Shown: in pieces, positions 4,457 through 36,374 of the stretch
Position numbering within the stretch: the first letter of the stretch is position 1
Layout of the letters: every line of letters starts with the position of its first letter
Source: Nemertoderma westbladi
Lineage: Eukaryota > Animalia > Xenacoelomorpha
Reading direction: 5' to 3'
NCBI GenBank assembly: GCA_032718475.1
Contig: JAUCBJ010009018.1
Span: 1,096 to 65,095 of the forward strand
Length of the DNA: 64,000 bases
Notes under the pieces: model-generated
Told to the model about the DNA's origin: nothing
The model's database searches: none
Seen by the model: only the letters and a program-made list of their open reading frames with translations
Program-made: the position numbers and the translations under genes

Positions 4457-5690
4457 TGTTCGCGCTTTTGAAGACCTTTAGCAGTTTAACCTGCCAAAAT
4501 TTATATGTCTTTTAGTTAATTAACACACCTTTAGCATACGACAATATTTTATGCTAATAAACAAAACATTAGCCGAAGCCAGCCCATGCGCGATCATTCA
4601 CCCGATGGATCTACACCCGGGAGGCTGAATTCGGATGCTTAGATTTTATTATTGCAGTGTAAGGTTGCAGTGTAAACCTATTGTATTATTCGATAGATCA
4701 CTAATATGTAATTTCTGACAGATATTATTAACTTTCGGGAAATATTAACAGTTCCTTTAGGACGTGGCGCTCTATCTATTTAAACAGAGCTAGGACTTAT
4801 ACTAAACGCAACGATAAGGCTTATGATTAAAGTATAAGTCGCATTCTTTAGGAAATGCTTTGTTACCAGTCACATCACACTCACAATCATGCACACTATT
4901 CTGCCGACCGTCAGTATATTTGATCACACATAAAGAGAACAGCAATTGACTCAGGTAGTGTCTACTAAATAACATTAGATTCAATACACACCACATTGAT
5001 ATAAATCGCAATTGTTATATATAGCCCGCCTCTCTAACCTGTAGTGTATCAAGAAAATTGGGAATTTTGGGTGATTTATCCGTATTCTCCAAAGAGCAAT
5101 ATTTCCATCAACAAATAGATACAATTAATAACTGACGGTAAATAGCAGTACAAACAATATGATTAGTGCAGTTAAATTAAGTGAGGTAACACCGCCGGTA
5201 ACAGTTATACTTTCTATAATCTAAGCAGTTTTACTAGAGTTCTTCCCAAAAAGCCGGTGTTTCTGGCTTAGACAGCAATAACAACAAAGTATCAAGTAAG
5301 GCAGTAAGACTGAACACTCTCCTTATGATCGGCTGAAAAGCTACACGTCGACAGGAAAAATCGCTCTGATTGGCTCAAGCCAAACAAAGAACTATGCGTC
5401 CAATGGCTGTTTCCATGTCAGCAACCAGCTGTTAGATGTCGTAATATGAATCATCACGGCTAAGCTGTGAAAGGTAGTTGGTGCATTACAGGTTTTTTGC
5501 CTTACCATGTCCGCCAAAACACGTATATAGCAGAATGACTTTTATGTCCGTTAAAACACCTGTAACGGTACCTTGCGGGCGAGGGGAATATATATACAGT
5601 TAGAGAACCTTTTTAGAGTATTCCAGCGCCTGGGGGGAAACTGGATTGCGAAGCAAAAGGGGCCAGTTATATCCCACAGAAGCTTTTACA
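4457..5690 (-). repeat. 3' LTR of element A
   Basis: Direct repeat of 15351..16584 with about 6 differences counted by eye. Reads TGTAAAAGCT...GCGAACA on the minus strand. Confidence 0.97.
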
Positions 5691-8844: not shown

Positions 8845-11800
8845 TCACGTTATGGAGTCCCTAGATATTTGTCGGATTAGGGAAGTAGTCGTAGGAAGAG
8901 TATCTTGCCTTCCATAGTTTCCGGACAGTTTTCGGTCTCTTTCCAGTAAACATAAACGACTAGCTGGGCGATTGAGTTGTTGTGGTACTTTCTCCGCTCC
9001 CTTGGCCTGTCTACTCTCTGCCGTGGTAAGATGAGGAGGCCATTCTTCTTCTTCTTTACTTAAGGAGTCGGATCCACCTAACCAGCCTGGAGTATCTATC
9101 AGTTCTTGAGGAGTTGCTCCTCTGGAAGCGATGTCGGCTGGATTAATCGTCCCAAGGCAATGTCTCCATTGATCTACATTGGAGTTAATATCGTCATTAT
9201 CTGAGGAGTATGGTGTTCCCTCAGTTGGGTCGTCCACATCACTGCTCTCCACTTCCCCCTTTACTTGGTATACCTGTTGTTGAGGTAATCTCTCTTTGAG
9301 AGTTCTACGGGAAGGGCCAGTGAAGTACCAACCTACTCTAGTTCTTACCGCATAGGTTTGTAGTGGCTGTGGTTGAGCAGGCCGTTTCTCTAATGGCTCG
9401 AGCGCCTCATGCGCGTTTTGGCCGATGAGTATTTGCACTCCAGGATAATCGGTTTGGAATCGAGGTATCTCAAGATGTTGGATGCACTCGTCCTCGTCCC
9501 AGTTATAAGGTTCTGCTTGAGTAGTAGCAAAGTTCTTTATAGCCACCATTTTTACTGACCTTATACCTTGTGTTCCTAACTTATCCTGGGGGGTGGACAA
9601 CACACCTACATAGTAATCTGCCGTTAGGGTAGATTTCCAAACCTGCATAATTCCTGACATATTCAATTTAGTCCGGAACTTGGGTTGTCCAGCAAAGATA
9701 TCTTCGGCTAGTTCTTGATCGATGAATGTTCCTGTGCTGCCGGAGTCAAGTAGGGCGTTCACTATGTAACTCTTGTTGGGACCATGAACTCGAACTTGCA
9801 CTACAGGAAATTCTCTTATTCCTATGTTGGAAGTTGGAACTTTCCAAGATGGTTGTTTGTCAAAAGGAGTTGGAGTAAACTCGTCAGTGTCCTTTTCATC
9901 CGTAAGTGCTCGATACACTGTGGTATTTATTAGATAACAGGACTCGCCGGCATCGGAGAATTCGTCTGTATAGAATCCCTCCCACCCAGAACCCCGGTCA
10001 GTGCCGTTCACATCACTGAACTGGACATGTAGTTCGGGCTCACTTACCTGACTCGGGTTGTCTCGTTCGAACTCACTGTGTAACAAGATGTGATGTTTCG
10101 CGTCACACTTTGCACACTTTACGTCGGAGTAACAGGTTCGCCGTTGGTGTCCTGATCTGAGGCAATTATAGCATAACCGCTTATTCCACAGGACTGTACG
10201 TCTGTCTACAGGGGATTTCTTTAGAAATTCAGCACACGCACTCAAACGGTGGGGCCCGTCGCACAGCGCACATTTTGGTTTGATGTTACTCACCTTACCT
10301 TGGGTAACGTTATGCACTCTCGTTCTTTCTTCGGGCTTTCTTCCGTGAATTCTCTTAGGAGACGTAGGAGGAGTTGTTGTTACCTGTTCTCTCCTGTCAC
10401 TGATTCGAGACTTGTATTTACTTACGTCTTTATAGGTCTTGTTGTCATAGTAAGATTTTGCTGTGTCTTTCCCGCTGTCCTCTTCTTGAGAAGCTTGGCT
10501 CTCGCCGTCGTCAGTGTAACACACTGGTATTATCCTTCTCCTAGAAACGGGTTTCTCACTTACCTTATTTTCCGATGTTTTCTCTCTGGCCTGCTTGATG
10601 AGTTGTAGTTTTACCTCACCATCTAAGAAGGACATGAGATCAGCCATGGTAGGACTTCGTCGTTGTTGTTCATTCATGTACAACACTTTCTTGTCCCAGC
10701 GTGTACATACTCCACCCTTTGGTAAAGTAGAGACTACGGCTCCAATAACCATGGAACTCTGATATTCATGCAACTTACCTAACCAGTCCAGTTGTCTACA
10801 GATCTCTTGAATTTCATCGGAAAACTCTATAATCCCGCTACTAAGGAAGTGTCGGGGGGCTACTAATTTTGCATACAAATACTTAGCTATGTTATCTTTG
10901 TTACCATACCTGATGTTTAATGTATCCCAAACTTGTCTTAATCCATCTGGATGTCCAATAAACTTTAACGCCATTAACTTGGGAGGTCCTTCCAAGCACT
11001 TGATGAGGAATCTAAGTTTTTCTCCGTTAGATAGTACAGAGTTCTGTATGCTATCTTTGTAATATTCGTTGAAAGGTAACCATTTCATCTCATCTCCATT
11101 GAATTTGACGATCTCTCCCACTTTGACCGCTTGGCGGGCTTCTGTTCTAGCCATCTGACGCGTAAAGCTTTCTTGGGCCATCGTGTTATTTAATATCGAA
11201 TTATCGGTATATAAAGTTCTCGGATCATTATCAGGTCTATAGGGAATATCATTAATAACAGGTCTATAATCACCCTTAATAGGGTTTGCTATAGGAGTTT
11301 CAACTTCACTAGCAGTATAGATGCGTGTAGGCTCCACACCTTGCGCATGTAATACTTCAGACCTAACAGGTTGACACAATGTTACAGGGGGTATTGGTAT
11401 GCCCTTTTGTATATTGACTAATTTGTCGCGTTCTAGCGCGATACTTTGCTGCACTTCTTGCAACTCTGCTCTACCTTCCCTCACTGTTCCCTTAAGTTGG
11501 TGGACAGTCTCCTGCATCTGTCCCAGCAGGAGATTCATCCCCCGCCGTCCCTCTTCCACCCACTCAACCGCCGAAGCGGGAGTCGCCAACATTGTAGCGG
11601 GCTGACGCGGGACGACGGGAGACAAATCTTTGATTCCTCTCTCAATGCTCAGGACAGGGGTGTTTGCATGGACTGTTCCACCGGGTACAGGCAGTGTAGT
11701 ACTATGTAAAGGGAATTTAGAGTTAAGCTCTGGAAGTACAGGGGTCTCTAACACAGAAGTGACTTTGGGAACGACAGGCCTAATTATTTCAGGCTCATCA

Positions 11801-13014
11801 ACTATTGTAGGGAGTCTTGTGACCTGAATAATTTGTTCTGTGGGTTCTGTATTACCTAAGTCTGTGCTAGCTAGTTGTCTTCTGACCGCTGGGGGCAAAT
11901 CAGGCAGTTTATGACGGTGAGATGTTTTTCTACGCCTGCTTAGACGAGATCTATTTCCTCCGCCTTCAGGATCGGTGGTCTCGCCTTCCTCCGAGGATGT
12001 GTATCCCTGGCGCTTGGGAGTAGATCGACTCATCATCTGCATTTGATTAGCAGTAAACTGTTTATTTATACTGTCTTGCGTCTCTTGCAGATTTTCCAAC
12101 TCCAGTTGGATAGTCTCATCAGAAGCTCTCCGTTCTGCTTCTGCCACTGCTGCTTTTCTTTCTGCTTCTGCTTCTGCCGCCGCTGCTTTTCTTTCGGCTT
12201 CTGTTTCTGCCGCCGCTGCTTTTCTTTCGGCTTCTGCTTCTGCCGCCGCTGCTGCTGCCACCTTTCTTTTCTCTATCCGTTCTTTCTTTACTTGTTCTTC
12301 TCGGACTCTAATGAGGCGGAGTTTTTCATCACATTCAGCTTGGTTTGCAGCTAACATTTCCGCATCGATTGCGTCCAACACAAGCTTGGTTCCTTCACTA
12401 TTAGGGCGAAGTCCAGACAGCCGTCTCCTCAACTCTTCGTCTCCTAGGAATCGCTGATAGTCGGACAAATAAATGTCGATAGCGTCTCTAGTTCGCGGCT
12501 TCTCTGCTGATGTTAATTCGCTTTCCACTTCGCTTTCCACCTCGCTTTCCACTTCGCTTTCCACCTCACTTTCCACTTCGCTTTCCACCTCACTTTCCAC
12601 TTGAGAAGAAGTGGCGTCGGTTGATTCTTCATAGGTTGGCCGCTCATCATAAACCGTATCCGCCATCTTCGCTCCGCGTTCGGGCGTCCGCTCAACAGTA
12701 TCCGAACTACTGGAGCTATCGGGCCGCTGAGAACTAGGTTCTTGGCTAGGAGGTTGCTGCTGTTTTATAGCTTCTTCTTGATCCCGCTTGACTTGGGCCC
12801 GAGTGCCTATGGCAGACCAACGGCGCTTCACTAACTTCGCAAATTGCGAAATCTTTTCTACCAACCTAGGTTCTGACACAACCACTGCAGGAGTTGCCCT
12901 TCTTACAGTATGAGGGGTTTCAGACCTCGGTCTGGGATTCTCTACACTTTGATCTGAGAAACAGGCTGTTGTTTCTAGGAGACTATCTGACAGAGTTTGC
13001 CTTGTGTCAGCCAT
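8845..13014 (-). CDS. gag: BEL/Pao Gag-protease polyprotein fused in frame to short pol remnants (1389 aa)
   Basis: Open frame with a coiled-coil region, KFNGDEMKWLPF (BEL DUF1759-like), CALCDGPH...CYNCLRSGH...CAKCDAKHH knuckles and ALLDSGSTG aspartic protease. It then continues with only WRHC..NPADIASRG and the integrase tail NRPASRLCLLE. Confidence 0.93.
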   Translation of the reverse strand: MADTRQTLSDSLLETTACFSDQSVENPRPRSETPHTVRRATPAVVVSEPRLVEKISQFAKLVKRRWSAIGTRAQVKRDQEEAIKQQQPPSQEPSSQRPDSSSSSDTVERTPERGAKMADTVYDERPTYEESTDATSSQVESEVESEVESEVESEVESEVESEVESELTSAEKPRTRDAIDIYLSDYQRFLGDEELRRRLSGLRPNSEGTKLVLDAIDAEMLAANQAECDEKLRLIRVREEQVKKERIEKRKVAAAAAAEAEAERKAAAAETEAERKAAAAEAEAERKAAVAEAERRASDETIQLELENLQETQDSINKQFTANQMQMMSRSTPKRQGYTSSEEGETTDPEGGGNRSRLSRRRKTSHRHKLPDLPPAVRRQLASTDLGNTEPTEQIIQVTRLPTIVDEPEIIRPVVPKVTSVLETPVLPELNSKFPLHSTTLPVPGGTVHANTPVLSIERGIKDLSPVVPRQPATMLATPASAVEWVEEGRRGMNLLLGQMQETVHQLKGTVREGRAELQEVQQSIALERDKLVNIQKGIPIPPVTLCQPVRSEVLHAQGVEPTRIYTASEVETPIANPIKGDYRPVINDIPYRPDNDPRTLYTDNSILNNTMAQESFTRQMARTEARQAVKVGEIVKFNGDEMKWLPFNEYYKDSIQNSVLSNGEKLRFLIKCLEGPPKLMALKFIGHPDGLRQVWDTLNIRYGNKDNIAKYLYAKLVAPRHFLSSGIIEFSDEIQEICRQLDWLGKLHEYQSSMVIGAVVSTLPKGGVCTRWDKKVLYMNEQQRRSPTMADLMSFLDGEVKLQLIKQAREKTSENKVSEKPVSRRRIIPVCYTDDGESQASQEEDSGKDTAKSYYDNKTYKDVSKYKSRISDRREQVTTTPPTSPKRIHGRKPEERTRVHNVTQGKVSNIKPKCALCDGPHRLSACAEFLKKSPVDRRTVLWNKRLCYNCLRSGHQRRTCYSDVKCAKCDAKHHILLHSEFERDNPSQVSEPELHVQFSDVNGTDRGSGWEGFYTDEFSDAGESCYLINTTVYRALTDEKDTDEFTPTPFDKQPSWKVPTSNIGIREFPVVQVRVHGPNKSYIVNALLDSGSTGTFIDQELAEDIFAGQPKFRTKLNMSGIMQVWKSTLTADYYVGVLSTPQDKLGTQGIRSVKMVAIKNFATTQAEPYNWDEDECIQHLEIPRFQTDYPGVQILIGQNAHEALEPLEKRPAQPQPLQTYAVRTRVGWYFTGPSRRTLKERLPQQQVYQVKGEVESSDVDDPTEGTPYSSDNDDINSNVDQWRHCLGTINPADIASRGATPQELIDTPGWLGGSDSLSKEEEEWPPHLTTAESRQAKGAEKVPQQLNRPASRLCLLERDRKLSGNYGRQDTLPTTTSLIRQISRDSIT
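12519..12603 (-). repeat. 12-bp coding tandem repeat (ESEV)n in Gag of element A
   Basis: ctttccacttcg/ctttccacctca units encode VESEVESEVESE...; element B has a single unit. Confidence 0.9.
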
Positions 13015-14344
13015 GTTTGATTGTACAGTCGAATGCCTACTGCTATATTACAGTTAAAGCAAGTCTAGTAATTCAGTATCACTGTTAGCCTAATAATTAA
13101 TTACCGATACTGCTACTCAGTGTAGCGTGATATATATATAATATATTAGAATACCGGTATGCTTATAATATATATATAAGTATTATTACAGACTAGATTT
13201 GTCACAGAGTACCGGTATATAATTTTAGCACAAATATATATAAATATATAATAGGCCTATCGTGAATACCGGTATACAGCCTACACTTATAGTATATAAG
13301 TATAATTCTGGACTATAATTAATTACAGAGTACCGGTATGATTTCAGCTCAAATTTATAGAAATAAATATAATAAGCCTATGGTAAATACCGGTATGTCA
13401 ATTATTTTAGAATAATTGAATTTCTGAATATTTTAGGGTTACTTGGTTACTTTAACTTACTTTATTACCGTTATTTAAGCAGCAGTCCAACTGATATTGA
13501 GACCTAGTTGTTGTATGGCAGGCCTACTATTTATAAATCGTTTGAGTTGATTTATAATAGATATATACCCGTTTAAATGGGTTTTTGTCAATATTTGAAA
13601 TAAATGTTATTATTTCTGGGGGAGTCACTACACAGAAGCTGAACGCCTCTCAGTGAAGTGCTATTTATTTGACACTAAAACTGATAATTCTAATTTACCT
13701 AAGTTACTTAATACTACAAATTACTTACGATATGGGTGAGATTAATTCCCTAATTAAACACAACAAAATATTACGTACGAAATTTTTAGGGTAATTTTAC
13801 AGGAAGTCTACAAACCAGTCCAACAAAGGGTTAGAATTCTGGTTATTACTGTATTACAACGGACAGGGTACTACGGTATTTGAAATAATAAGTAGTAGTA
13901 AATATATTGTACTGTCCAGATAGGAAAATACCACCGCCTGACGACCTATAACCGTATCGCTATAGGTACTACGTTATGTATCACGGATTGTTCCTACCCA
14001 GAAGCTAATAGAGCTAACGAATGTGCCTATCAACCACTTTACAACACAAATATACTGCCTACACTAATTACTTCGGAAAGCACTGTACACTAAACCCTAA
14101 ATTAGGTACAAGTACCGGTATAACAAATAATCAGTAGTTAAATATACTTGAACAGTTAAAAGAACCACGGCATCTGCTGGAGTGACCGAAGCACAAAGTC
14201 GTCAGTCTTTACCTACGCCAAGCAGCCCTGATGTAGTACCGGGGTTAGTTTAACTATAACGGTATGTGTAACAAACACAATTACTGTAGGAATAAACTTG
14301 GGGACATGAATGTTGCGAATAATCGCATAAACTCTGAATAATAA

Positions 14345-15338: not shown

Positions 15339-15350
15339 TATAACTGTTAC
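15339..15350 (-). promoter_or_regulatory. Atypical primer-binding site of element A (complementary to LTR 16092..16103)
   Basis: Minus-strand GTAACAGTTATA directly after the 5' LTR, with no TGG. Perfect complement of TATAACTGTTAC inside the LTR. Confidence 0.7.
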
Positions 15351-16584
15351 TGTTCGCGCTTTTGAAGACCTTTAGCAGTTTAACCTGCCAAAATTTATAT
15401 GTCTTTTAGTTAATTAACACACCTTTAGCATACGACAATATTTTATGCTAATACGCAAAACATTAGCCGAAGCCAGCCCATGCGCGATCATTCACCCGAT
15501 GGATCTACACCCGGGAGGCTGAATTCGGATGCTTAGATTTTATTATTGCAGTGTAAGGTTGCAGTGTAAACCTATTGTATTATTCGCTAGATCATTAATA
15601 TGTAATTTCTGACAGATATTATTAACTTTCGGGAAATATTAACAGTTCCTTTAGGACGTGGCGCTCTATCTATTTAAACAGAGCTGGGACTTATACTAAA
15701 CGCAACGATAAGGCTTATGATTAAAGTATAAGTCGCATTCTTTAGGAAATGCTTTGTTACCAGTCACATCACACTCACAATCATGCACACTATTCTGCCG
15801 ACTGTCAGTATATTTGATCACACATAAAGAGAACAGCAATTGACTCAGGTAGTGTCTACTAAATAACATTAGATTCAATACACACCACATTGATATAAAT
15901 CGCAATTGTTATATATAGCCCGCCTCTCTAACCTGTAGTGTATCAAGAAAATTGGGAATTTTGGGTGATTTATCCGTATTCTCCAAAGAGCAATATTTCC
16001 ATCAACAAATAGATACAATTAATAACTGACGGTAAATAGCAGTACAAACAATATGATTAGTGCAGTTAAATTAAGTGAGGTAACACCGCCGGTAACAGTT
16101 ATACTTTCTATAATCTAAGCAGTTTTACTAGAGTTCTTCCCAAAAAGCCGGTGTTTCTGGCTTAGACAGCAATAACAACAAAGTATCAAGTAAGGCAGTA
16201 AGACTGAACACTCTCCTTATGATCGGCTGAAAAGCTACACGTCGACAGGAAAAATCGCTCTGATTGGCTCAAGCCAAACAAAGAACTATGCGTCCAATGG
16301 CTGTTTCCATGTCAGCAACCAGCTGTTAGATGTCGTAATATGAATCATCACGGCTAAGCTGTGAAAGGTAGTTGGTGCATTACAGGTTTTTTGCCTTACC
16401 ATGTCCGCCAAAACACGTATATAGCAGAATGACTTTTATGTCCGTTAAAACACCTGTAACGGTACCTTGCGGGCGAGGGGAATATATATACAGTTAGAGA
16501 ACCTTTTTAGAGTATTCCAGCGCCTGGGGGGAAACTGGATTGCGAAGCAAAAGGGGCCAGTTATATCCCACAGAAGCTTTTACA
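15351..16584 (-). repeat. 5' LTR of element A
   Basis: Direct repeat of 4457..5690, bounded by TSD GATTG. Confidence 0.97.
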
Positions 16585-18943: not shown

Positions 18944-20119
18944 TGTAAAAGCTTTTGCGTCATTAACCGGTTATTTTCCCTTAAAGTACTCTGTAGTTGG
19001 TTTGCCAGGCATAAAAAGGCCATGTCCTTGCTTTACTGGTGTTTTAGAGGACATAAAAGTCATTTCTTCTGTATTTGTACTGTATTTGTACTTTAGAGGA
19101 CATAATCCGTAATCTCGTGACGCGATAAGCTAGATACTCTTGAAAACAGTGTCGCTACCATGACGACGGCTAACAGCTGATATTGCCACGTCGACGTTTC
19201 TTTGTTTCTTTGTTCTCTCGTTGTTCGGTTGACCAATCAGAGCGTTTTTTGTCTCTGTGTTGGAGGTGTATACAGAACTCAGTAGTTCAGTGTTTATGTT
19301 TTTGCTAGAGCCTAAGAACATCGGCCTTTGGCACCTACGTATATCAGCATTCTTTAGCTTTACATTAGTAGGCTTAATTATAGAACGTATATCTGTTATC
19401 GAAACATACTAACCACAAGTTAACTCATTCACTTAATAATCATTTATACATTAATATTACTGCTTTTACTGTCGGTTATTCATTATATTGGTTGATGAAA
19501 TATTATATCGGAATACTGATCAATAGTCAGACACCCCACCTTCTTGATATACTAAAGGTTAGAGAGACCGGTTACAGATAAACGATTGCGACCTATGTTG
19601 AGTGGTTTGAAGTGAATCTAATGCTATTTCATATGCCCAACATAAATTGTCTGTTGCTCTCTTTATACGTGACTAAATTTAGTGAAGGTCGGCAGATTAG
19701 TGTGCAGTATTGTGCAGCATTGTGTATGAGTGTAACTGATAACAAAGCATCTCCTAAAGAATGTGCCATATACGTTAATCTATAGCCTTTTCGTTGTGTC
19801 TAGTTTAAGTCATAACTCTGTTTACATATTTAGAGTGCCACGTCCTAAAGGAACTGTTAATATTTCCCGAAAGTGAATAATATTGGTCAGAGATTATATA
19901 TTACGATCAGTCGAATAATACGGTAGGCTTACACTATCAATCATTAAGCTCCGAACTCAGTCTCCCGGGTATATCCAACGGGTGAATGATTGCGCATAGA
20001 CTGGCTTCGGCTAATGTAGTGTATCAAATACTCGTCATAAAGCTAAAGAATATATATCATCTAAAAGACATTCTAATTTTGGCAGGTTAAACTGTCAAAG
20101 GTCTTCAAAAGCGCAAACA
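18944..20119 (+). repeat. 5' LTR of element B
   Basis: TGTAAAAGCT...GCGCAAACA; about 8 differences from 36375..37549 counted by eye. Confidence 0.97.
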
Positions 20120-20130
20120 ATAACAGATAT
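20120..20130 (+). promoter_or_regulatory. Atypical primer-binding site of element B (complementary to LTR 19389..19399)
   Basis: ATAACAGATAT directly after the LTR, with no TGG. Perfect complement of ATATCTGTTAT inside the 5' LTR. Confidence 0.7.
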
Positions 20131-20970: not shown

Positions 20971-22304
20971 ATTATTCAGAGTTTATGCTATTATTCGCAA
21001 CATTCATATCCCCAAGTTTATTCCTACAGTAATTGTGTTTGTTATACATACCGTTATAGTTAAACTAACCCCGGTACTATACGGGCTGCTTGGCGTAGGT
21101 AAAGACTGGTGATTTTGTGCACCGGTCACTCCAGCAGATACCGTGGTTCTTTTGGCTGTTCAAGTATTTTTAACTACTAATTATTTGTTATACAAGTACT
21201 TGTACCTAATTTAGGGTTTAGTGTACAGTGCTTTCCGAAAGCAATTAGTGTGTAGGCAGTGTATTTGTGTTGTAAAGTGGTTAATAGGCACGTTGGTTCT
21301 GGTAGACCGCGGTAATTAACTTCTAGGTAGGGACACTCCGTGATACATAACGTAGTACCTATAGCGATACGGTTATAGGTCGTCAGGCGGTGGTATTTTC
21401 CTATCTGGACAGCGCAGTATATTTACTACTACTTATTATTTTCAAATACCGTAGTAACCTGTCCGTTGTAATAACCAGATATTCTAACCCTTTGTTAGGC
21501 TGGTTAGTAGACTTCTTGTAAAATTACCCTAAAAATTTGTATTTGTGTATTTGTAATTAAATTTTTGTGTTTATTTAGAGATTGTAATCTCAACCCGAAT
21601 TGTACGTAATTTGTAGTATTAAGTAACTTAGGTAAATTAGAATTATTTGTTTTAGTGTCCAACAAGTAGCACTCCACTGAGAGCGCACAGCTTATGTGTA
21701 GTGACTCCCCCAGAAATAATAACATTTATTTCAAACATTGACAAAACCCATTAAACGGGTATATATATATTATAAATCAACTCAAACGATTTATAAATAG
21801 TAGGCCTGCCATATAACAATTAGGTCTCAATATCAGTTGGACTACTGCTTGAATAACGGTAATAAAGTAAGTTAAAGTAACCAAGTAACCCTTAAAATTC
21901 AGAAATTCAATTATTTAAAATAATTGATATACCGGTATTTACGATAGGCCTATTATATATTTATATACTTGTGCTGAAATCATACCGGTATTCTGTAATT
22001 AATTCTAGTCTGTAATTATACTTATATATATACATTATAAGTGTAAACTGCATACCGGTATCCACGATAGGCCTATTATATATTTATATATATTTGTGCT
22101 AAAATTATATACCGGTTTCTGTGAAAAACCTAGTCTGTAATAATACTTATATATACCATAAGCATACCGGTATACTAATATATTATATATCACGCTACAC
22201 TGAGTAGCAGTATCGGTAATTAATTACTAGGCTAGCAGTTAATACTGAATTACTAGACTTACTTAGACTGTAATAGCAGTAGACATTCAACTGTGTAAAC
22301 AAAC

Positions 22305-25300
22305 ATGTCTGATACTAAGCAGAACCTGTCAGACAGTTTATTAGATGAAACTATCTGCGACTCAGATAAGGGTGTAGAACCGTCTAGTCCTAAATTCAGT
22401 TCACCTCCCACTGTGAGGAAAGTCATCCCTCCAGTAGTAATAACAGAACCTAGGTTGGTCCAACATCGTAGGTCTATCATAGGCACTCGAGCTCAGGTCA
22501 AGCGGGACCAAGAAGCAGCGGAACAGCAACAACCCGCGAGCCAAGAACTTATTTCTCAGCGGCCCGACAGCTCCAGTAGTGAAGATACTGTAGAACTGAC
22601 ACCCGAGCGCGGAGCAAAGATGACGGATGCGATTTATTCGGATCCCCTTCTCATCCTTCCTGCAGCCGTACTCACTAGGTTATTGATCGCGGTGGAAGAA
22701 CACCAGATCGATTGGGCGAGAAGTAAGCGATCCACTAAAGATCGTTATGAGGGATACACAAGGGAAGAGCTGAAGTCTATGGTCGAGTCGCAATGGAACT
22801 TCCCCGGACCCGGACTCCCATTTGATTTATCAGAAGCTGCCTGGGAAGACATACACCGGATGGGAGTAGCCAAGGAAACCATCGATCCAGCTGTGTGGAA
22901 GAGGTCCGCAGCCGGATACGCACAGGGATTCTTCAGCTCTATGGAGCGAGTAGAAAAACAACTGTTTCAACAACCTCAAGGACCTCAAGAGCAGGGACAA
23001 CTGCTTTATCAAGTTAGAGAAAGAATTCTGCGAATCAGGCTAATATTATCAGCCTTTGAAGAGGCTTCTAAAAGAAGACAAGACACGTCGTTGCAAGTTG
23101 CCGTAAAGACTTGGTTTCAACGGGTGAGTCGCCAGGTTCAAGGAACAGCTTAGTGGAAAGCTCAGCTGGAGGAGCGCTCAACCCATGGAGAATCAACGGA
23201 CGCTACTTTTTCCCAAGTGGAAAGTGAAGCGACGGCAGAGAAACCGCATAAGAGGGATGCCATTGACATCTATCTGTCAGACTATCAGCGTTTTTTGGGA
23301 GATGAAGAGTTGAGGAGAAGGCTAGATGGACTTAGCCCTAATAGTGAAGGAGCCCAGCATGTGTTGGATGCAATTGATGTGGATAGGTTAGCGGCGAACC
23401 AAGCTAAATTCGATGAACAACTCCGCATCGCTAGAGACCAAGAAGAACAAGTAAAGAAAAAACGTATAGAAGATAGAAAGACAGCGGCAGTGGCAGCAGC
23501 AGTGGCAGAGGCCGAAGCGGAAAGAAAAGCGGCAGCAGCAGTGGCAGCGGCAGAAGCTGAAAGAAAAGCGGCAGTGGCAGCAGCAGCGGCAGCGGCAGAA
23601 GCGGAAAGAAAAGCGGCAGTGGCAGTGGCAGTGGCAGAGGCCGAAGCGGAAAGGAAAGCGGCATCGGCAGTGGCAGAGGCCGAAGCGGAAAGAAAAGCGG
23701 CACTGGCAACAGCAGAGGCAGTGGCAGAAGCAGAACGGAGGGCATCTGAAGAGGCAACCCAACTAGAGTTGGAAAATCTTCAAGAGAGGCAAGACAACTT
23801 CAATAAACAGTTAACAGCTAGTAATATGCAGATGATGAGTCGATCTACTCCCAAAAGACAGGGGTATACATCATCTGAGGAAGGCGATACTACCGATCCT
23901 GAAGGCGGAGGAAATCGATCTCGCCTAAGCAGACGTAAAAGAATGTCCCACCGTCAAAAATTGCCTGATTTGCTTCCAGCTGTTAGAAGGCAACTAAATA
24001 ACACCAACTTAGGTAGTACAGAACCCACAGACCAAATAATTACAATAGAGAGACTCCCTACTATAGTAGATGAGCCTGAAATAATTAGGTCTGTTCCCGA
24101 AGCCACCCTTTCGGTCGTAGAGACACCTGTACTCCCTGAACCTACCTCTCAATTCCCTTTGCACAGCACTAAGCTACCTGTGCCCAGCAGAACAGCCCAT
24201 GAGACAGTTCATGCCCTGGACTCCGAGCGAAATATTCATGATTTGTCGCCCGTTGTCCCTCGTCCGCCCGCTACAACGTTGGTGAATCCCGCTTCGGCGG
24301 TTGAATGGGTGGATGAGAGACGACGGGGGATGGATCTCCTGCTCGGACAGATGCAGGAGACCGTTCAGCAATTCAAGGGCACAGTAAGGGAAAGTAGGCT
24401 AGAGTTGCAAGAGGTGCAGCAAAGTATCGCGCTAGAACGCGATAAATTAGTAAATGCACAAAAGGGTATACCACCACCCCCTGTAACTATAGGGTAATTA
24501 TAGACCTGTTGATAATGATATTCCCTATAGACCGGATCATAATCCGAGAAATTTATATACCGATAACTCGATATTAAATAACACGATGGCCCAAGAAAGT
24601 TTTACGCGTCAAATGGCTAGAACCGAAGCCCGGCAAGCGGTAAAGGTGGGAGAGATCGTCAAGTTCAATGGAGATGAGATGAAATGGTTACCTTTTAATG
24701 AATATTACAAAGATAACATACAGAACTCCGTGCTATCTAATGGAGAGAAACTTAGATTCCTCATCGAGTGCTTGGAAGGATCTCCCAAGTTAATGGCGTT
24801 AAAGTTTATTGGACATCCAGACGGATTAAGATAAGTTTGGGATACACTAAACATCAGGTATGGTAATAGGAATAACATAGCTGGGTATTTGTATGCAAAG
24901 TTGGTAGCGCCCCGAAAGTTTATTAGCAGCGGAATTATAGAGTTTTCCGATGAGATTCAGGAGATCTGCAGACAATTAGATTGGCTAGGTAAGTCTCATG
25001 AGTATCAGAATGCTATGGTTATTAGAGCAGTGGCTTCTACTTTACCGAAGGGTGGAGTAGGTACACGCTGGGATAAGAAAGTGCTATATATGATGGAACA
25101 ACAACGACGAGACCCTACCATGGCTGATCTCATGTCATTCCTAGATGGAGAAGTGAAATTACAGCTCCTGAAACTGTCCAGAGAGAAGACACCGGAAAAC
25201 AAGGTAAGTGAAAAACCCGTCGCTAGGAGAAAGGTAACCCCAGTGTGTTATACAGATGATGGCGAAAGCCAGACTTCTCAAGGAGAAGATAGCGGGAAAG

Positions 25301-26488
25301 ACACTGATAGATCTTATTACGTAAATAAAATGCCTAAAGATCAGGTAAGTAAATTCAAGTCTCGAACAAATGACAGGAGAGAACAGGTAAGAAAAACTCC
25401 TCCTACGTCTCCCAAGAGAATTCAGGTGAGAAAGCCCGAAGAAAAAACAAGTGTACACAATGTTACACAGAGTAAGGTAAGTAACATCAAACCGAAATGT
25501 GTGCTATGTGATGGGACCCATCGCTTAAATATGTGTGATGAATTTCTAAAGAAATCATTAACTGAGAGACGTGAAGTCATGTGGGACAAGCGGTTGTGCT
25601 ATAATTGCCTCAGACAAGGACACCAACGGCGAACCTGTTACTCTGACACAAGATGTGCCAAGTGCGGTGCGAAACATCATATCTTGTTGCACACTGAATT
25701 CGAGCGAAATAGTCTGAGTCAGGTAAGTGATTCCGAACTACATGTCCAATTCAGTGATGTGAACGACACTGATCAATCTGAGATGGAAGGATTCTATACG
25801 GACGAGTTCTCCGACGAAAACGAATCCTGTTACATGATAAATACCACAGTGTATCGAGCACTCATCTATGAAAAAGATACAGACATTGACCTCGCTCTAA
25901 CCACTTCTGATCGACAACCATTTTGGAAAGCGCCAACTTCCAATGTAGGGATTAGAGAATTTCCTGTGGTACAGGTAAGGGTCCACGGACCGAAAAGGAG
26001 TTATGTAGTGAACGCCCTCCTTGACTCCGGTAGTACAGGAACATTCATCGACAAAGAGCTAGCCAAAGACATATTCGCTGGACAACCCAAGTTCCGAACT
26101 AAGCTAAACATGTCAGGAATTATGCAAGTTTGGAAATCCACAGTAACCGCGGATTATTATGTAGGTGCGTTGTCCACCCCCCAGGACGAACTAGGAGAAC
26201 ATAGCATAAGGTCAGTGAAAATTGTGGCTATAAAGAACTTCGCTACTACTCAAGCAGACCTTTATAATTGGGACGAGGATGAGAGCATCCAACATCTTAA
26301 GATACCTCGATTCCAGACAGATTATCCTGGAGTGCAAATACTCATCGGTCAAATGCGCATGAAGCGATCGAGACGTTAGAGAAACGACCTGCTCAACCGC
26401 AACCTCTACAAGTTTATGCGGGAAGAACTAGAGTAGGTTGGTACTTTACTGGCCCTTCCCGTAGAACTCTAATGGAAAGATTACGGTA
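22305..26488 (+). pseudogene. gag: Disrupted gag-protease of element B
   Basis: Collinear with the Gag-PR of A but broken five times: in-frame TAG 23151..23153, ~110-bp deletion with frameshift at ~24490, CAA>TAA 24832..24834, 1-bp deletion at ~26353, and 5-bp insertion 26484..26488. Confidence 0.9.
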
Positions 26489-29400
26489 CCTAAAGAGCAG
26501 GTATACCAAGCGCGAGAATGGGAAGTTGAGAACAGTGAGTTCGACGATCCAACTGAGGGAACTCCATACTCCTCAGACAACGACGATATACATCAACTTT
26601 TTGATGAGAAGAATGCCATCGATCTCCTTAAGGAAAGCGAGACTTGGCAAAATCAAGTGAACTTATGTCAACTCCTTCTCCCATCTGAGCGAGACGACTA
26701 TAACGACGAGCTTAATGACGTCATTGAACGTTATAATGCCAAGACTCGGGATGAACACGCCGTGAGATTCTTTACTCAAGAGGTCGTAGATCCCAACTCC
26801 TACGATAAGGCCCTATCGGTGGAGGAAGAAAGAGCCAAGCAGATCCAAGCGATAACTACTCGTTTTCTTAAAGATCAAGGTAGGTATGAGATCGGACTTC
26901 CTTTCCGAAAGCGAGAACCAAAGTTCATTAACAACAGACCTTTGGCTGAGAAAAGAATTGCTCAACTACATCGACGCCTTACGGCAAATTCTTCAGCTAA
27001 AGAAATGTATAAAACACAGTTGAAGAAGTTTATTAGCAAGGGATATGCGGAGCTAGTACCGGAAGAAACACCCATAACTGAGAGAACGTATTATTTAACT
27101 CACCATTACGTTCCCAAACCCGGTAAACCCCATGAAGTACGAGTGGTGTTCGACGGCTCCGCCCTCTATATGGGCCAATCCCTTAATTCTGAATTGTTAC
27201 CCGGACCCAACTTACTCCAATCCTTGTTGGGAATATTATTAAGGTTAAGACAATACTCCATTGCTTTCGCCTCAGATATAGAAGGCATGTTCTTACAAGT
27301 CAAAGCGCTGGATAGGGATCGAGATAGCCTACGATTTTTGTGGTGGCCTGAAGGAGACCTCAATAAGAAACCGGTGGAGTACTGGATGACCATCCAAGCT
27401 TTTGGGATAATCTCGAGCCCTTCAAACGCCTGTTCCGTGGTGCGCACCACTGCGGATGACAACCGAGACGCCTTCTCTAAAGAAGTGATCGACAATATCA
27501 AACGAGACATCTACATGGACGATAATCTGAAGTCCCTTCCATCAGTCGAAGAAGCCATTGAGGTCGCTAAAGGAACGGTAGAATGCTTAAAGAAGGGTGG
27601 ATTTCGATTAACTAAATTCACCAGCAACTCCCGTGAGTTTCTGGAGTCGATCCCGGTAGAAGATCGAGGAACAAAAGACCTAGATCTAATAAAGGATGAT
27701 CTCCCAGAAACTAAGACCCTTGGTTTGAAATGGGACACAGAAATAGATATCCTGTTTTTCCAACTAAAACAGCGAGATAATCCAGTTCGGACTAAACGGA
27801 TTTGTTTAAGTATCCTGAGCACTTATTTCGATCCATTGGGATTTATTAGCCCAGTTATATTAATTGCTCGGAGTTTAGTACAACAAATGTGGCTTGAAAA
27901 CCACTCATGGGACGATCCACTTAAGGGAGAATTATTAAAGAAGTGGATGAAATGGGAAGATTCTCTACCAGCCATCGAAAACTTCATAATTTCCCGTTCA
28001 TATTTTGGTCATGTTCTCCCTACGTATTCATATCAACTCCATGTGTTTGGAGACGCCAGCGATATGGGAATCGGTATAGTAGCCTACCTCAGGGTGGAAA
28101 CTCCGGACGGAATTAAAGTCGCCTTGGTTACCTCTAAGGCATTAATAAACAACAAGTTGAAAGTTCCTCGAGCGGAGTTAAAAGCGGCTCTATACGCTAC
28201 AGCCATCAGCCGGAATGTAACAGAACAGATCGACTATCCCCTGGAGAAAATTGTCTATTGGACCGACGCTTTACTCGTGTTGGAGTATATAACCAATGAA
28301 GTCTGTCAGTTCAGCGTCTTCATTACCAACAGAGTAGCTATTATACTCAGTCGCACGACGATGGATCAATGGAGACATTGCCCCGGAACGATTAATCCAG
28401 CGGACATCGCTTCCAGGGGAGCAACTCCACAAGAACTGGTAGATACTCCAGACTGGTTAGGTGGACCCGACTTCCTCTACAAAGAAGAAGAAGAATGGCC
28501 TCCTCATCTTACTACAGCAGAAATTAGACAGGCCAAGGGAGCGGAGAAAGTCAAACCTAAAACTCAGGCGAGTAAATCGAAGTTATTCAAACCCACAGTA
28601 GATCTGTCTGTACTACATACTTCCGGAGACGACGCTTTGGATCAGAAACCCACAGCCACAAATAAACTCGTTGTGGAAATCCGTGATAAGGATTGGAAAT
28701 CTGGCATACCAGACGTCTCGCAAGGACTCTCACCCCTTCTGCAGAGAGCGATACATCACTACAGTTCTTGGAATCGGCTTTGTAAGGCCGTTACATATTT
28801 AAAGAGATGTTTTCACCATCACTACTCTGGGATGAAAACAAAGGGTGATACCGCTCCAATCACATCAGTGCAGGTCCATGTTATTAAAGACCTCCCTAAA
28901 TATAAGGTACCCGACAAGTTTCTGAAGGAGAAGATCAGTTATCAGGAGCATGAAGAAACCAACAAACAGTTGCTGAGACTCTTACAATGCTATGAAGATT
29001 CCGATAAGTATTTCCTGTTGTTGAGAAATCCACAGATGCGCTTAAGGGATCGTTTCTCTAGCACAATGATAGATGGGTTGATACGTGTTGGAGGAAGGTT
29101 AACGAATGCCCCATTATCCTTTGATACTAAGTTCCCCATACTCATTAGAAATCTTGAAATACAAGTCAAGATGATTGTAGATGTTCACAGCAAACTTTAT
29201 CATGCTGGTAGAGAACGAGTTCTTAGCGAAATTCGAACTCGCTATTATTTTTATAAACCCCGTAGAGCTCTGAACCAAGTTCTTAGGAACTGTATACCCT
29301 GTAGGAAAGCATTCAGTAGGCCTTTAACACAGAGAGAGGCAGAATTACCTAGGGAACGAGTAAGCTTTTATGAACCACCCTTTACTAATACCGGCGTGGA

Positions 29401-30397
29401 TTTATTTGGCCCTATTGAAGTATATCGTGCTAGGACTATAGTCAAGAGATGGTGTGTAATCTTTGTTTGTATGACTTGTAGAGCCATCCATCTCGATATG
29501 GTGAACGATTTATCTACCAACAGCTTTCTATTAAGCTTACGACGACAGATCGCTCGCTTTGGCACTAGTAACACGATGAGATCTGATAAGGGAACAAACT
29601 TCATTGGTGCCAACAATGAAATCAAAGCTTACGTCAAAGATTGGAACCAAAGACAGGTGGACGACCAACTACGAGTAACAGCGTCTAGTTGGACCTTCAA
29701 CGCCGCCGACGCCCCTTGGTGGGGAGGAAGTTGGGAAAGATTAATAAGAAGCGTGAAGACAGCATTTCATTTTATAGTGCCTTGCCGCGCTTATCTCACC
29801 GACGAACTTTTGCGGACGTTAATGGAAGAAATCGCCGCCTATCTCAACGAGAGACCGCTTATGCCAGTCTCATCGAGTCCCGATTCCCTGGAAGCGCTAA
29901 CACCCGCGCACTTCCTACTGAAGAAACCTGTAGCCATGCTCCCACAATCGGAAATCACAGACGGAGACGAATACTGCCGACAAACTTGGCAACTCATGCA
30001 GTTGTTATCCCGTCGTTTCGCTGACCATTTCGAAAAACATTATCTGCCCACGCTACAACTTCGAACTAAGTGGTTTGCGCAGCAAGAAAACGTCAGCGCT
30101 GGAGACATGGTGCTTATTGTGGATGTGGATCTTCCACATAAGCGGTGGCAGACAGGTCGTATAATCGAGACGCATATCTCGGATGACGGTTTGGTGCGAT
30201 CGGTAGAACTCGTCGTCATGCGACGTAACTTCAAGAAACCGGGAATTGTCTTCGAGACGCAGCAGCTCAATCGCCCGGTGGGACGTTTATGTTTACTGGA
30301 AAGAGACAGAGAACTCTCCGGAAACTATGGGAGACAAGATACTCTTCCCACGACCACCTCCCTAATCCAACAAACATCTAGGGACTCCCCAACTTAA
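26489..30397 (+). CDS. pol: BEL/Pao pol: reverse transcriptase, RNase H, integrase (open frame; no upstream in-frame gag)
   Basis: RT: VRVVFDGS, SDIEGMFLQV, YMDD. RNase H: LHVFGDAS, PRAEL, WTD, NPADIASRG. Integrase: HHCC plus GVDLFGP, RSDKGTNF, GGSWERL. Frame is open from about 26489; the ORF track starts at GTG 26657. Confidence 0.95.
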   Translation, partial: PKEQVYQAREWEVENSEFDDPTEGTPYSSDNDDIHQLFDEKNAIDLLKESETWQNQVNLCQLLLPSERDDYNDELNDVIERYNAKTRDEHAVRFFTQEVVDPNSYDKALSVEEERAKQIQAITTRFLKDQGRYEIGLPFRKREPKFINNRPLAEKRIAQLHRRLTANSSAKEMYKTQLKKFISKGYAELVPEETPITERTYYLTHHYVPKPGKPHEVRVVFDGSALYMGQSLNSELLPGPNLLQSLLGILLRLRQYSIAFASDIEGMFLQVKALDRDRDSLRFLWWPEGDLNKKPVEYWMTIQAFGIISSPSNACSVVRTTADDNRDAFSKEVIDNIKRDIYMDDNLKSLPSVEEAIEVAKGTVECLKKGGFRLTKFTSNSREFLESIPVEDRGTKDLDLIKDDLPETKTLGLKWDTEIDILFFQLKQRDNPVRTKRICLSILSTYFDPLGFISPVILIARSLVQQMWLENHSWDDPLKGELLKKWMKWEDSLPAIENFIISRSYFGHVLPTYSYQLHVFGDASDMGIGIVAYLRVETPDGIKVALVTSKALINNKLKVPRAELKAALYATAISRNVTEQIDYPLEKIVYWTDALLVLEYITNEVCQFSVFITNRVAIILSRTTMDQWRHCPGTINPADIASRGATPQELVDTPDWLGGPDFLYKEEEEWPPHLTTAEIRQAKGAEKVKPKTQASKSKLFKPTVDLSVLHTSGDDALDQKPTATNKLVVEIRDKDWKSGIPDVSQGLSPLLQRAIHHYSSWNRLCKAVTYLKRCFHHHYSGMKTKGDTAPITSVQVHVIKDLPKYKVPDKFLKEKISYQEHEETNKQLLRLLQCYEDSDKYFLLLRNPQMRLRDRFSSTMIDGLIRVGGRLTNAPLSFDTKFPILIRNLEIQVKMIVDVHSKLYHAGRERVLSEIRTRYYFYKPRRALNQVLRNCIPCRKAFSRPLTQREAELPRERVSFYEPPFTNTGVDLFGPIEVYRARTIVKRWCVIFVCMTCRAIHLDMVNDLSTNSFLLSLRRQIARFGTSNTMRSDKGTNFIGANNEIKAYVKDWNQRQVDDQLRVTASSWTFNAADAPWWGGSWERLIRSVKTAFHFIVPCRAYLTDELLRTLMEEIAAYLNERPLMPVSSSPDSLEALTPAHFLLKKPVAMLPQSEITDGDEYCRQTWQLMQLLSRRFADHFEKHYLPTLQLRTKWFAQQENVSAGDMVLIVDVDLPHKRWQTGRIIETHISDDGLVRSVELVVMRRNFKKPGIVFETQQLNRPVGRLCLLERDRELSGNYGRQDTLPTTTSLIQQTSRDSPT

Positions 30398-31225: not shown

Positions 31226-32042
31226 TGTCTATTTAACATTAAATAATCAAATTTACGGGAATAAATTTAAATTCATATATTTCAATGAATTAATAAATTG
31301 TCATTTTATACAATTTATAACATTCCCAAAATTCCATTAATTAATAGATCATGGGAGCGGAGATTCACTCTATTAAGTGTATTTGTGTGCGAGAATCTCC
31401 AATGTATAGTCAATAGCCGATAAAATTCATAAAATCATGTATAAAGGGGATATTGACCATTAAAGAATTACTATTAAATAGCATCCCAGATCTGTATGCA
31501 TGAGAATTACCCTAATTCTACCGCTAGCTTTCCATAATGTCACCATGGCAACAACCACGCTAGAATTAGAAGTGAGTTAAAAGAACAATAGAAAGCATGC
31601 CCCATTGAATAGCATAGGGAATAAATAGCGCACTGCTAGTACCCAAGGATACATAATAAATACAGTGACATTCTGGAAGGTACTGACTAACGGACAAATG
31701 GCCCGAATGTGTGCAGTTTGTTGCAGTTGTGTTGAATTTGTGCGTTTGTAGGTGAATGTTACTACTAAGGTGTGTTTACAGTAGCGAGTCGCAATTGTGA
31801 AAGTAACCCTAACTCTCCAAGAAGAACCTGCAGTACATCTAAGCCTTTGGGACGGACAGTGAAGTGACTTGTGCCGGTTATCGTTGTCGTTGTGTAGCTA
31901 CATCGTTGGCGAAAGCACAGCGACGACGGTACATCGGCGCTGAGGATCTTACACTGTCCGGGGGCAAAAGAGGGGTAGGCAGCGACGCCTGCTAGCCTAA
32001 TATATATAAACTCATTATAATATTGATAAACTCATAGCAGAT

Positions 32043-35000
32043 ATGACTGAGTTGATAGAAGATGATCTTGGTATCAGGGAGCGATATACTCTACCTTTAC
32101 AAGCATTTGTCGATAGCTTGATACGCGGCGACGCTGGTCCAACTACTACGGAGGATGATGGTCGTTATATCGAACCGCCGATGTCCCCGGAGCAACTTAC
32201 GCGTGAATTGGACTATAGAAAGTTCACCGCTCGCTATACGCATCGTAATGGTACGTATATGGACTTCTTAACTACCGGCCACCCTATCGATTTACACGAT
32301 ACGGACGATGTGGATACCGAAAGGGAAATGGTTTTATTTAAATATCACACCCAACGGAATCGGAACGATAAGCCAAGAATAGAACACGAGAACTCTATTC
32401 GAAACAGACTCGAAAGAGAAGACGTTGAAGAGCCGGATAAACGCAACGACTTCAACGATTATCTGGAATTCTTGAGAGAAACATACCTCAATATTGCCAG
32501 TCAACAAAATCTCGAAACTCGATATCCTCAAGGTATACATCATGATCCTATGATAGAACTCAAGCGACTCTATTTCACTATGATGTATCTTACCGCCGAT
32601 CGACCGCTACCTGTTGTCCCAGATAGCTTCGAACAGATGGAGGAATATTGTAAAACTGGAGAACGATCACCCGCGTTTCCTCTGCAGGACATGCGTCTTT
32701 GGTATTACTGTGACGAATGCCCTAGACCCAATCAGCAAACGGAAAGACATAAACATCCGCGGAGACATTGCGCTAAACACAGTTTTACACGATATACTTA
32801 CGGGAGTTTCGAGCGAAACCTGTTCGACGTGTCCCCTGCGGTCGCTCGACTCAAGCGATCCTTGAACAAACCGATGATCAGAGTTCCGGAATACTCGGTC
32901 AGACCTCCGCATTCCTCAGTTAGACCTCAAACTCTTGACCCTAATAGTATCACGGATCCTCCCGAACTGTACTCACTGTTCAAAGATCTAGTGTTACCCG
33001 AACAGTTGATCGGTGGCACTCCGGTAGTAGGCTCACGAGACATTCGCCAACCCTACCTAGCTGGATTGGGACGTGGTCATCTAATATCGCCGTTTAACCC
33101 ATACAACCGTCCCGGCTTCACCTCTATCCAACCCGCTACGGAAGTCGAAGAGAGCGTCGTACGAAACGCATTAGACGCTATTCGGCAGAAAATCGGAAAG
33201 GGAACGTACGATTGTTTGGAGAAGCGTAAATTGCAGCAACAAGTCCAAGCGGTGAAGGAATTAGCTTTACCCCAGTTCGATAGAGAAATACAAAATCTCG
33301 AGGAGGACATCGAACGTGGACGAACCTACTCTTTACAAGAGTTTCTAGATGAGCGTCTACAACAACAAGCGGAGGAGAATCAGCTCGAGGAGAGACATAT
33401 AGAACTGGATGAGAGAGAAGAAGCGGCTTTAGCTCAACCCGAAGCGCAAATCCTTATGACGGATCTCTACTCTAAAACCATTCTTCATCCCTCGATGGTT
33501 CCCCATTTCGGAGACAAACTTTTTGCGACGGCACAACCCCAACCGGTTGATATCAACCTAAGATCTCGCGATCTTATCGCCGACGCTCCTCTGTTGCAGC
33601 GTCCGCCCATCGAACCCGCTCGTGTCGATGGTATACTCGTTGAACCTCCGGACAATAGAGCAGATCTTGTCCGTCGCATGGTACACGATGTAAACATACG
33701 CGCTAGACCTTTACCGGACTCGTTTTATGGGATCAAAGATCACCCTTATTACGTCAATCTAAAACAATATTACATGGTAAAACCGAAAGATCCTACACAT
33801 AGTCTGAAGTTTCTACCGTTAATAAATCCTCTCGATCTTGTCGAACTCGAACAACTGCAGAAACATCTGGATCAGTTAGTTAAAGTAAACTCGTTTCGAA
33901 AACCATATAATGTTTCCAGAATAGAGAAAGAAACAATACCTCCGTATAATCTTGATGGATTCATCAAAACTCGTTTAGTGCACTGGAATCTTGATGTGTT
34001 ATTCGAGGAGGAAAGAATACAACGATATGGAGATGTGGAAACATATACCACACAATGTTTAAAGTATAAAGACCTGCCTAATGCTAGCGAATGTGCTACC
34101 TTGTGGCATCCTGTGGGAATGACACTCGAAAACGCCACTAAAGAGTGGAACGAAACTCTTAACGTTATCGAGATGTATGGAGTTGTCACTTACGATAACG
34201 AAGGTAGCGTTCCGGTTGGAGAACTTGGAACTACGCGGATGATACACATACGAGGACTCGCTGGTTCTACCCACGTATTTACTCGAGCGTGTTCCGACGT
34301 TATTGATTATTCTTTTGAAACTCTTACTGAGATACAAAAGAAACTCCGACATGGACAATTTGAACTCGCGCAGCGTTACGTCACCGACACCGAGCGCAAG
34401 CCGGCTATGGGTATCGATGGATCGATGTTACCCCAACCCGTGCTCGAGATGCTGTTTAACGAAGGAATCCTTAAAATCGGCTCAGCTGTTTATGGAGACC
34501 TACAGAACGACTTTCGGAATATGGAGAACATTCCATACCCCTTCGTTGATACTCAGCTGATTGCTCCTTGGGCAGAAGGCCGAGGTTTCTTCCGCACTAC
34601 GTATGCCAATACACCCAGCGGAATTACCAAAGTACAACGAACCTCCATCGGACATCTTGCCTTTCAAGAATACGGATGGAATTTCAAGGTTGGAAATCCT
34701 ATAAATTACCAACAAGTATACGGAGATCATTATTCTCGTTTATACTTTGATGGACCATTGACCGCACCTGGCGCCGTGTATAGCTTTATGAGTGTTCCAC
34801 TTCGTCCCTCCTTAGCTATATACACGATCTTTGAAAACGCAGCACTTGCCGGTTGGCTAGCCGATGTGTGCAGTCGTACCATACGCGCCCATCCCTTAGT
34901 ACTTGGAACCAAACTCGCCAAGTTAGATGAACACAATAAATTCATCCGCTTTGAATGTTTCAAGCGCTTTCTGACTCCGTTCCGTAACGTTGATAGTCAG

Positions 35001-36364: not shown

Positions 36365-36374
36365 CTGGGAGCGG
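36365..36374 (+). promoter_or_regulatory. Polypurine tract of element B
   Basis: CTGGGAGCGG abuts the TG of the 3' LTR. Confidence 0.75.

Follow-up and report, generated by a model that had tools for sequence, protein, structure and literature searches.

The window, by which we mean the whole stretch of 64,000 nucleotides analysed here, contains two related LTR elements lying back to back, element A on the minus strand (16584-4457, 12.1 kb) and element B on the plus strand (18944-37549, 18.6 kb). The two LTRs of each element are >99% alike. The 5' LTR of B (18944..20119, plus strand, 1176 nt, TGT...ACA) differs at 8 places from its 3' LTR (36375..37549, plus strand, 1175 nt), and the 5' LTR of A (15351..16584, minus strand, 1234 nt) differs at 6 places from its 3' LTR (4457..5690, minus strand, 1234 nt). 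B is flanked by the target duplication GGAGT (18939-18943 and 37550-37554), and that of A is CAATC. The end of the polypurine tract of B (36367..36374, plus strand) abuts the 3' LTR, and the same tract is present in A. The untranslated leaders of both elements exceed 2 kb and contain a duplicated unit of ~287 nt (20401-20980, plus strand, in B and 14335-14915, minus strand, in A).

The coding region of B is broken into pieces. A gag-protease region (22299..26379, plus strand), made up of the open pieces 22299-23153, 23154-24497 and 24835-26379, gave weak matches to DUF1759 and to an aspartic protease. The pol piece (26465..30397, plus strand) contains a reverse transcriptase (RT) with YMDD, a Pao peptidase A17 family domain, an integrase zinc finger and DUF5641, and matches PF05380 (E 1e-36), PF18701 and PF17921. 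A contains a gag-protease ORF (8845..13047, minus strand) that matches DUF1759, and a search of A for the RT catalytic motif found none, indicating that A is non-autonomous. An extra ORF of 1428 codons occupies the env position of B (32010..36296, plus strand), and its 3' part (about 5677-8982, minus strand) is retained in A, which lost RT. The extra ORF matched no Pfam family at threshold (a zinc-knuckle match was weak, E 0.007), no PDB sequence and no homologue, and its single-sequence fold (pLDDT 30) gave no identity; a DEDDy exonuclease is an unsupported guess.

Elsewhere in the window, a 21-nt tandem array of fold-back character lies between A and B (18497-18794), with sub-threshold matches to Rfam miRNAs that are probably due to chance. 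A multi-C2H2 zinc-finger ORF is found at 40458-41954 (minus strand), the start of which is duplicated at 51129-51378, and two RVT_1 RT fragments (1550-2182, plus strand, and 54070-55005, minus strand), 96% alike over 393 nt, come from another retroelement.

The Pol of B, together with the Pfam families it shares with the best 120 database relatives listed (37-45% identity), places A and B in BEL/Pao (Belpaoviridae), a membership that rests on Pol and that agrees with the class assigned in an earlier, sequence-only reading of this DNA. The Pol order PR-RT-RH-IN was found in B, and both A and B have LTRs with TG...CA, a polypurine tract and a target duplication. In common with the ICTV profile of Belpaoviridae (PMC8742986), they have LTRs, a polypurine tract, gag with DUF1759 and zinc knuckles, PR-RT-RH-IN, Pao peptidase A17, DUF5641 and a 5-bp target duplication. 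The profile gives a genome of 4-10 kb and an 18-nt primer-binding site (PBS) for tRNA-Arg or tRNA-Gly, whereas A and B are 12.1 and 18.6 kb long, carry the extra ORF and have no tRNA-type PBS, as judged by TGG in the first 8 nt of the leader (PMC8742986). Pol is of the BEL/Pao type and a Pfam search of A and B gave no match to a chromodomain family, which sets them outside the Tf1/sushi group of Ty3/gypsy chromoviruses. The element family is very abundant in the host, with 8963 contigs of one sequencing run (X1) aligning on 1.6 kb.

The sequence-only reading had reported that the letters following the 5' LTR of each element are complementary to a segment of that LTR and contain no TGG, and all of its coordinates check. 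The PBS of B, ATAACAGATAT (20120..20130, plus strand), directly follows the LTR and is the exact complement of an 11-nt predicted self-primer segment at 19389..19399 (plus strand), which is the longest and the only such match within the LTR. The PBS of A, GTAACAGTTATA (15339..15350, minus strand), also directly follows the LTR and is the exact complement of a 12-nt predicted segment at 16092..16103 (minus strand), and TGG is absent from the first 8 nt of both leaders. The paired site begins at LTR position 446 in B and 482 in A, which are the same columns of the A/B LTR alignment, and its last base lies 720 nt from the end of the LTR in B and 741 nt in A. Both A and B show the pattern used to recognise Tf1-type elements, in which the PBS begins 0-5 nt beyond the 5' LTR and has a complement of at least 10 nt in the element's own LTR.

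Over the shared 11 nt, the sites of A and B differ at positions 4 and 11, and the two PBSs differ in turn at the partner positions (8 and 1), each having the base that pairs, confirming the two compensatory changes described earlier; if two changes fell at random, two matched changes would be expected with a chance of about 0.002. When the PBS of A was compared with the LTR of B and the reverse, the longest cross match was 6 nt or none, and the cognate duplexes were calculated at -13.0 and -10.5 kcal/mol versus -5.7 and -6.5 kcal/mol for the crossed A/B pairs. Dinucleotide shuffling produced a match of at least 11 nt in 12 of 5000 shuffles of the B LTR (P 0.0024) and a match of at least 12 nt in 3 of 5000 shuffles of the A LTR (P 0.0006), and across the window a complement of at least 11 nt in the preceding 1200 nt was found at 0.43% of 17,936 sampled positions. 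At the level of sequence, the self-complement of A and B is a real, non-random feature.

Both LTRs of A carry the intact site (3' copy at 5209-5198). The 3' LTR copy of B (36820-36830) has one mismatch to the PBS, which had been flagged previously and is real, being 1 of the 8 differences between the B LTRs. Among 5688 contigs of run X1, with 29 variable places in 781 nt, no variant with a depth share of at least 12% fell in the site or PBS of B, a result that is weak alone, with <1 expected in 22 nt; hence the letter in the B 3' LTR is a minority variant. The unitigs of this run cannot phase two places 720 nt apart. Immediately downstream of the site, 19400-19470 is hypervariable in the family: contig cover falls sharply, and indels and joints start at 19400-19413. 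Variability from 19400 fits the expectation if constraint stops at the 3' end of the primer.

Two further observations concern PBS-like sequence in the window. In the leader of A, a 63-nt tandem repeat (15179-15350, minus strand) creates two further partial PBS copies beside letters resembling the LTR end. A decayed third element, C (about 50205-53800, minus strand), contains sequence resembling gag and an LTR with ~70% similarity to the R-U5 part of the A and B LTRs. In C, the word CTGTTAT stands at the position homologous to the paired site and a few letters following the LTR end resemble a PBS, but the copy is too decayed to be informative.

Relatives were collected by aligning the RT-RH region of B with 40 of the best 120 relatives listed, from which 80 loci were fetched from metagenome contigs; a search of viral contigs for relatives found none. 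Of these loci, 33 with long-range direct repeats were inspected, and in 14 the LTR end was judged fixable. Two of them (L038 and L053) were left out because their two copies gave no clear LTR end, and the remaining 12 relatives plus A and B made up a strict set of 14, in which the LTR end was fixed by two diverging copies and the PBS was allowed to start 0-4 nt after the LTR. The LTR end of L016 was shifted by 10 nt after the match was seen, and that of L061 is uncertain.

A perfect self-complement of 10-15 nt was found in 13 of the 14 strict-set elements, corresponding to 11 of 12 lineages when A/B and L042/L051 are each counted once, so that the feature is clade-wide. The partner is contiguous in five elements (A, 12 nt; B, 11 nt; L035, 11 nt; L061, 12 nt; L078, 11 nt), and in the other eight it exists only across a GT-AG segment (L016, 11 nt; L023, 12 nt; L028, 12 nt; L033, 15 nt; L039, 11 nt; L042, 10 nt; L051, 10 nt; L060, 12 nt). 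The same search, at a threshold of at least 10 nt, gave matches in 2 of 178 pairs with swapped leaders and in 16 of 546 windows taken further down the leader, and fake-junction controls reached at least 10 nt only in A, B, L061 and L078, all of which have a contiguous site. No two of the 12 family PBSs are the same (on average, 5.3 of 11 positions are identical), and each pairs with its own LTR and with no other. Within the strict set, L074 alone has TGG among the first 8 nt of the leader, and it is also the sole element that lacks a self-complement. The PBS of this element (L074:56-80) is of the tRNA type, with TGG after a 5-nt spacer, and both priming modes would be present in this sequence neighbourhood. 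The last two bases of the predicted primer are A and a pyrimidine in 12 of 13 elements, and also in L060 if its PBS is read one base later, a post hoc adjustment.

An exploratory scan of 59 further loci, many of which lack a whole LTR, gave 31 matching rows versus 15 in reversed controls and is too noisy to count alone. Twelve matches picked by eye all precede a long ORF and lie within 5 nt of an ACA resembling an LTR end. Re-examination of 8 loci under relaxed filters, with no control, found a spliced complement of 10-13 nt next to such an ACA in 6 (L011, L022, L026, L038, L043 and L066) and none in L006 and L053.

The GT-AG segments of the 8 split relatives are 67-186 nt long, with GTAAG or GTACG donors and pyrimidine-rich AG acceptors, and in 6 of the 8 the donor ranks first or second by consensus match among the 36-69 GTs of the LTR. 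As predicted from these signals, the segments look like ordinary introns. RNA folding of the split relatives gave a helix probability of at least 0.6 for at least one start point in 6 of 7 once the segment was spliced out, versus at most 0.03 for the unspliced RNA. A and B appear to be the intron-less form of a system that, from the sequences, apparently needs splicing in most readable relatives. The sequence-only reading, whose class assignment, missing tRNA-type PBS and self-encoded priming are all supported, had missed this intron-like split of the partner in most relatives.

These results suggest that A, B and most of the sampled relatives probably prime minus-strand DNA synthesis with a piece of their own RNA, a view that draws on the sequence pattern and on analogy with Tf1 and that supports the self-encoded priming proposed earlier for this family, in a wider circle of elements than the earlier reading could see. 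Without exception, the pairing begins 0-4 nt beyond the LTR end, where the 3' end of a primer must sit. If these elements work as Tf1 does, the RNA would fold back so that its 5' part anneals to the PBS; cleavage immediately 3' of the duplex, probably by RNase H, would then create a 3'-OH from which U5 and R are copied. In the replication of LTR elements, plus-strand synthesis copies the primer into the new PBS. Were the self-primer copied back into the PBS in this way, the pair would be kept matched and the PBS would be a copy of the spliced joint.

A wider proposal is evenly balanced in our judgement: that a broad clade of BEL/Pao elements of aquatic animals gave up tRNA priming and adopted a self-encoded primer, joined from two LTR exons by the host spliceosome, that intron-less forms of the A/B type reflect repeated intron loss, and that the primer is cut from the interior of the RNA and not from its capped end. 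In a FastTree tree of 81 rows, the split and contiguous forms are interleaved and B forms a long branch (1.27), so that no order of gains and losses can be read. If the proposal is true, splicing would be a licence for reverse transcription, and a primer built by splicing would couple reverse transcription to the spliceosome.

The sequence upstream of the paired site bears on where transcription may start. A word that we take to be a CCAAT box, CCAATCAGAGCG (19233..19244, plus strand, in B), is exact in A (16267-16256) and may act in the promoter, and a word that we take to be an initiator, GTTCAGT (19285..19291, plus strand), is shared with A (16209-16203). In A and B, respectively, CCAATCAGAGCG lies 165 and 156 nt and GTTCAGT 107 and 104 nt upstream of the site, with equal spacing in both, and U3 is otherwise loosely alike. 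Read as a CCAAT box and an initiator, these words would put a candidate start near 19289 in B. No TATA-like word was found at about -30 in A or B. Five relatives have a TATA-like box, located 124-167 nt upstream of the first paired base in L016, L033, L060 and L078 and at -31 in L028. From these signals, transcription in A and B is somewhat more likely to start about 100 nt upstream of the segment, unlike in Tf1, and a start at the paired site itself, as the sequence-only reading had it, is doubtful. If the start lies ~100 nt upstream, the primer of A and B would carry a 5' tail or would need a second cut. Closer to the site, ATTATAGAA is common to A and B 12 nt upstream of it, and the word TTATAGAA (19378..19385, plus strand), shared with A (16113-16106), lies 10 nt before it. 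TTATAGAA could be a TATA box, in which case transcription would start after the site, the site would be outside the 5' RNA and the simple model would be refuted.

A start at the site would correspond to the strict Tf1 mode, a sub-case of self-priming in which the RNA begins, at its cap, with the 11-12 nt of the paired segment. In 12 of 13 elements the length of the pairing falls within 10-12 nt, like the 11 nt of Tf1 (available text of PMC7175516), and the TATA-like box of L028, 31 nt before the first paired base, is where this mode would place it. Base pairing does not extend significantly past the core on its 5' side (P 0.07 and 0.12), which is also in its favour. The folding of the two window elements is divided. 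With the RNA starting 0, 30 or 100 nt upstream of the site, the helix probability was 0.95, 0.24 and 0.00 for B and 0.07, 0.01 and 0.98 for A, such that B folds best when the RNA starts at the site and A folds best with 100 nt upstream; competing folds are present in both, and the helix probability was at most 0.2 in L028 and L078. For self-priming as a whole, the start dependence in A and B, the poor folding of L028 and L078 and the missing 5' extension count against. Strict Tf1 mode would make the first exon of the intron-type relatives only 4-9 nt long. The distant TATA-like boxes of L016, L033, L060 and L078, the lack of such a box at about -30 in A and B, and the conservation of the CCAAT and initiator-like words ~160 and ~105 nt upstream in A and B argue against it, and we regard this sub-case as possible but unlikely.

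Self-priming from within the same RNA is challenged by the idea that a short LTR-only RNA, derived from solo or 3' LTRs with splicing and polyadenylation, acts after processing and packaging as a separate primer in trans instead of by cis fold-back. In 9 of 12 elements, AATAAA or ATTAAA occurs downstream of the segment and before the LTR ends, making short LTR transcripts plausible, and both the very large number of family copies in run X1 and the cis loop of >700 nt in A and B would suit such a primer. The match of every element, A and B included, is to its own LTR and is exact, as cis priming would most simply explain. Cis and trans priming are inseparable by sequence alone, and we consider the trans version improbable.

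The duplex might instead be a regulatory switch that masks the PBS region, acting on translation or packaging or as a splicing check, with priming by something else. The competing folds of A and B would be in keeping with a switch, as would the gag start codon, which lies 11-111 nt from the LTR end in most strict-set relatives. We find this reading quite improbable, given that the duplex always starts 0-4 nt after the LTR, at the position required of a primer 3' end, and that no alternative primer site (TGG) is present. The segments of A and B contain CTGTTA, which resembles an Asn anticodon loop. Half-tRNA priming is known in copia lineages (available part of PMC6317226), but priming of these elements by a tRNA half or an internal tRNA fragment, with the LTR match as a coincidence or relic, is very improbable, because a fixed host tRNA cannot explain 12 differing PBSs that track their own LTRs, several of them across a splice joint, and no tRNA gene was found in the window and no Rfam tRNA-like match in 15000-20600.

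Self-priming by the element's own RNA, the reading that we prefer, has its closest parallel in Tf1, in which bases 1-11 anneal to the PBS and RNase H cleaves the RNA 3' of base 11 (available text of PMC7175516), with extra duplexes around the PBS being needed as well (available text of PMC10085805). Self-priming is listed for Tf1/sushi, Tcn1 and copia TAR elements (available part of PMC6317226). Like A and B, Tf1 and Tf2 of S. pombe, Tj1 of S. japonicus and the Tf1/sushi and Tcn1 chromoviruses have no tRNA site and have a PBS that adjoins the LTR and is complementary over ~11 nt to their own LTR (available parts of PMC7175516, PMC4600332, PMC10085805 and PMC6317226). In contrast to that group, the elements described here belong to BEL/Pao and not to the Ty3/gypsy chromoviruses, their segment may sit ~100 nt inside the RNA instead of at its 5' end, and many BEL/Pao relatives have an intron-like split of the segment, which does not appear in the available portions of the Tf1-group descriptions. 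The 'pretzel' flanking duplexes of the Tf1 group were not detected either, and the loop exceeds 700 nt in A and B; a coarse test of 12 elements gave no consistent signal for such duplexes, with 2 of 24 z-scores reaching -2.

In the TAR lineage of Ty1/copia, a self-primer was predicted from a complement of at least 10 nt located 0-5 nt after the LTR, a pattern that A and B share, but TAR belongs to a different superfamily and is found in plants (available part of PMC6317226). The fungal GalEa copia elements, with their Conserved Hairpin Site, also lack a tRNA PBS; the GalEa structure is a local leader hairpin without an LTR complement, whereas the partner in A and B is in the LTR (available part of PMC5445492). 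Most likely, these BEL/Pao elements use a self-encoded primer in a variant of the Tf1 mode, although tRNA priming is what their superfamily is described as using.

BEL/Pao is a main group of LTR retrotransposons of animals, its replication is termed poorly understood, and it is assumed to be primed by tRNA (PMC8742986). No report of self-priming in BEL/Pao was found in the literature searched; subscription journals, GyDB, Repbase and supplements were outside its scope, and an earlier remark is possible. The available portions of PMC3118150 and PMC554778 contain no text on a PBS or tRNA, and those of PMC3601003, PMC4600332, PMC13524379, PMC8220671, PMC6934838 and PMC5445492 do not mention BEL/Pao self-priming. 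Self-priming has been demonstrated for Tf1 and predicted for Tf1 relatives and one plant copia lineage. If it also operates here, the signature would extend to a third LTR superfamily, BEL/Pao, and self-priming would be a repeated solution. Defences based on tRNA fragments target the PBS of retroelements. Self-primed elements would be freed from the host tRNA supply and from such PBS-aimed defences, and self-priming would account for their being missed by PBS-based annotation.

Minor features of the termini were also recorded among the relatives. A preset test of whether the spacers on the PPT and PBS sides are symmetric failed (rho 0.15, p 0.66). In post hoc observations that we do not count, the spacer between the PPT and the LTR is the exact inverted LTR-PBS spacer in L023 (2 nt), L028 (2 nt) and L035 (3 nt), and the spacer is zero on both sides in A, B and L042/L051. 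The LTRs of L016, L035 and L060 end in TATA, not CA. Finally, L021 and L046 have the same LTR and PBS and have RT regions in different clades of the tree, possibly reflecting chimeric assembly.
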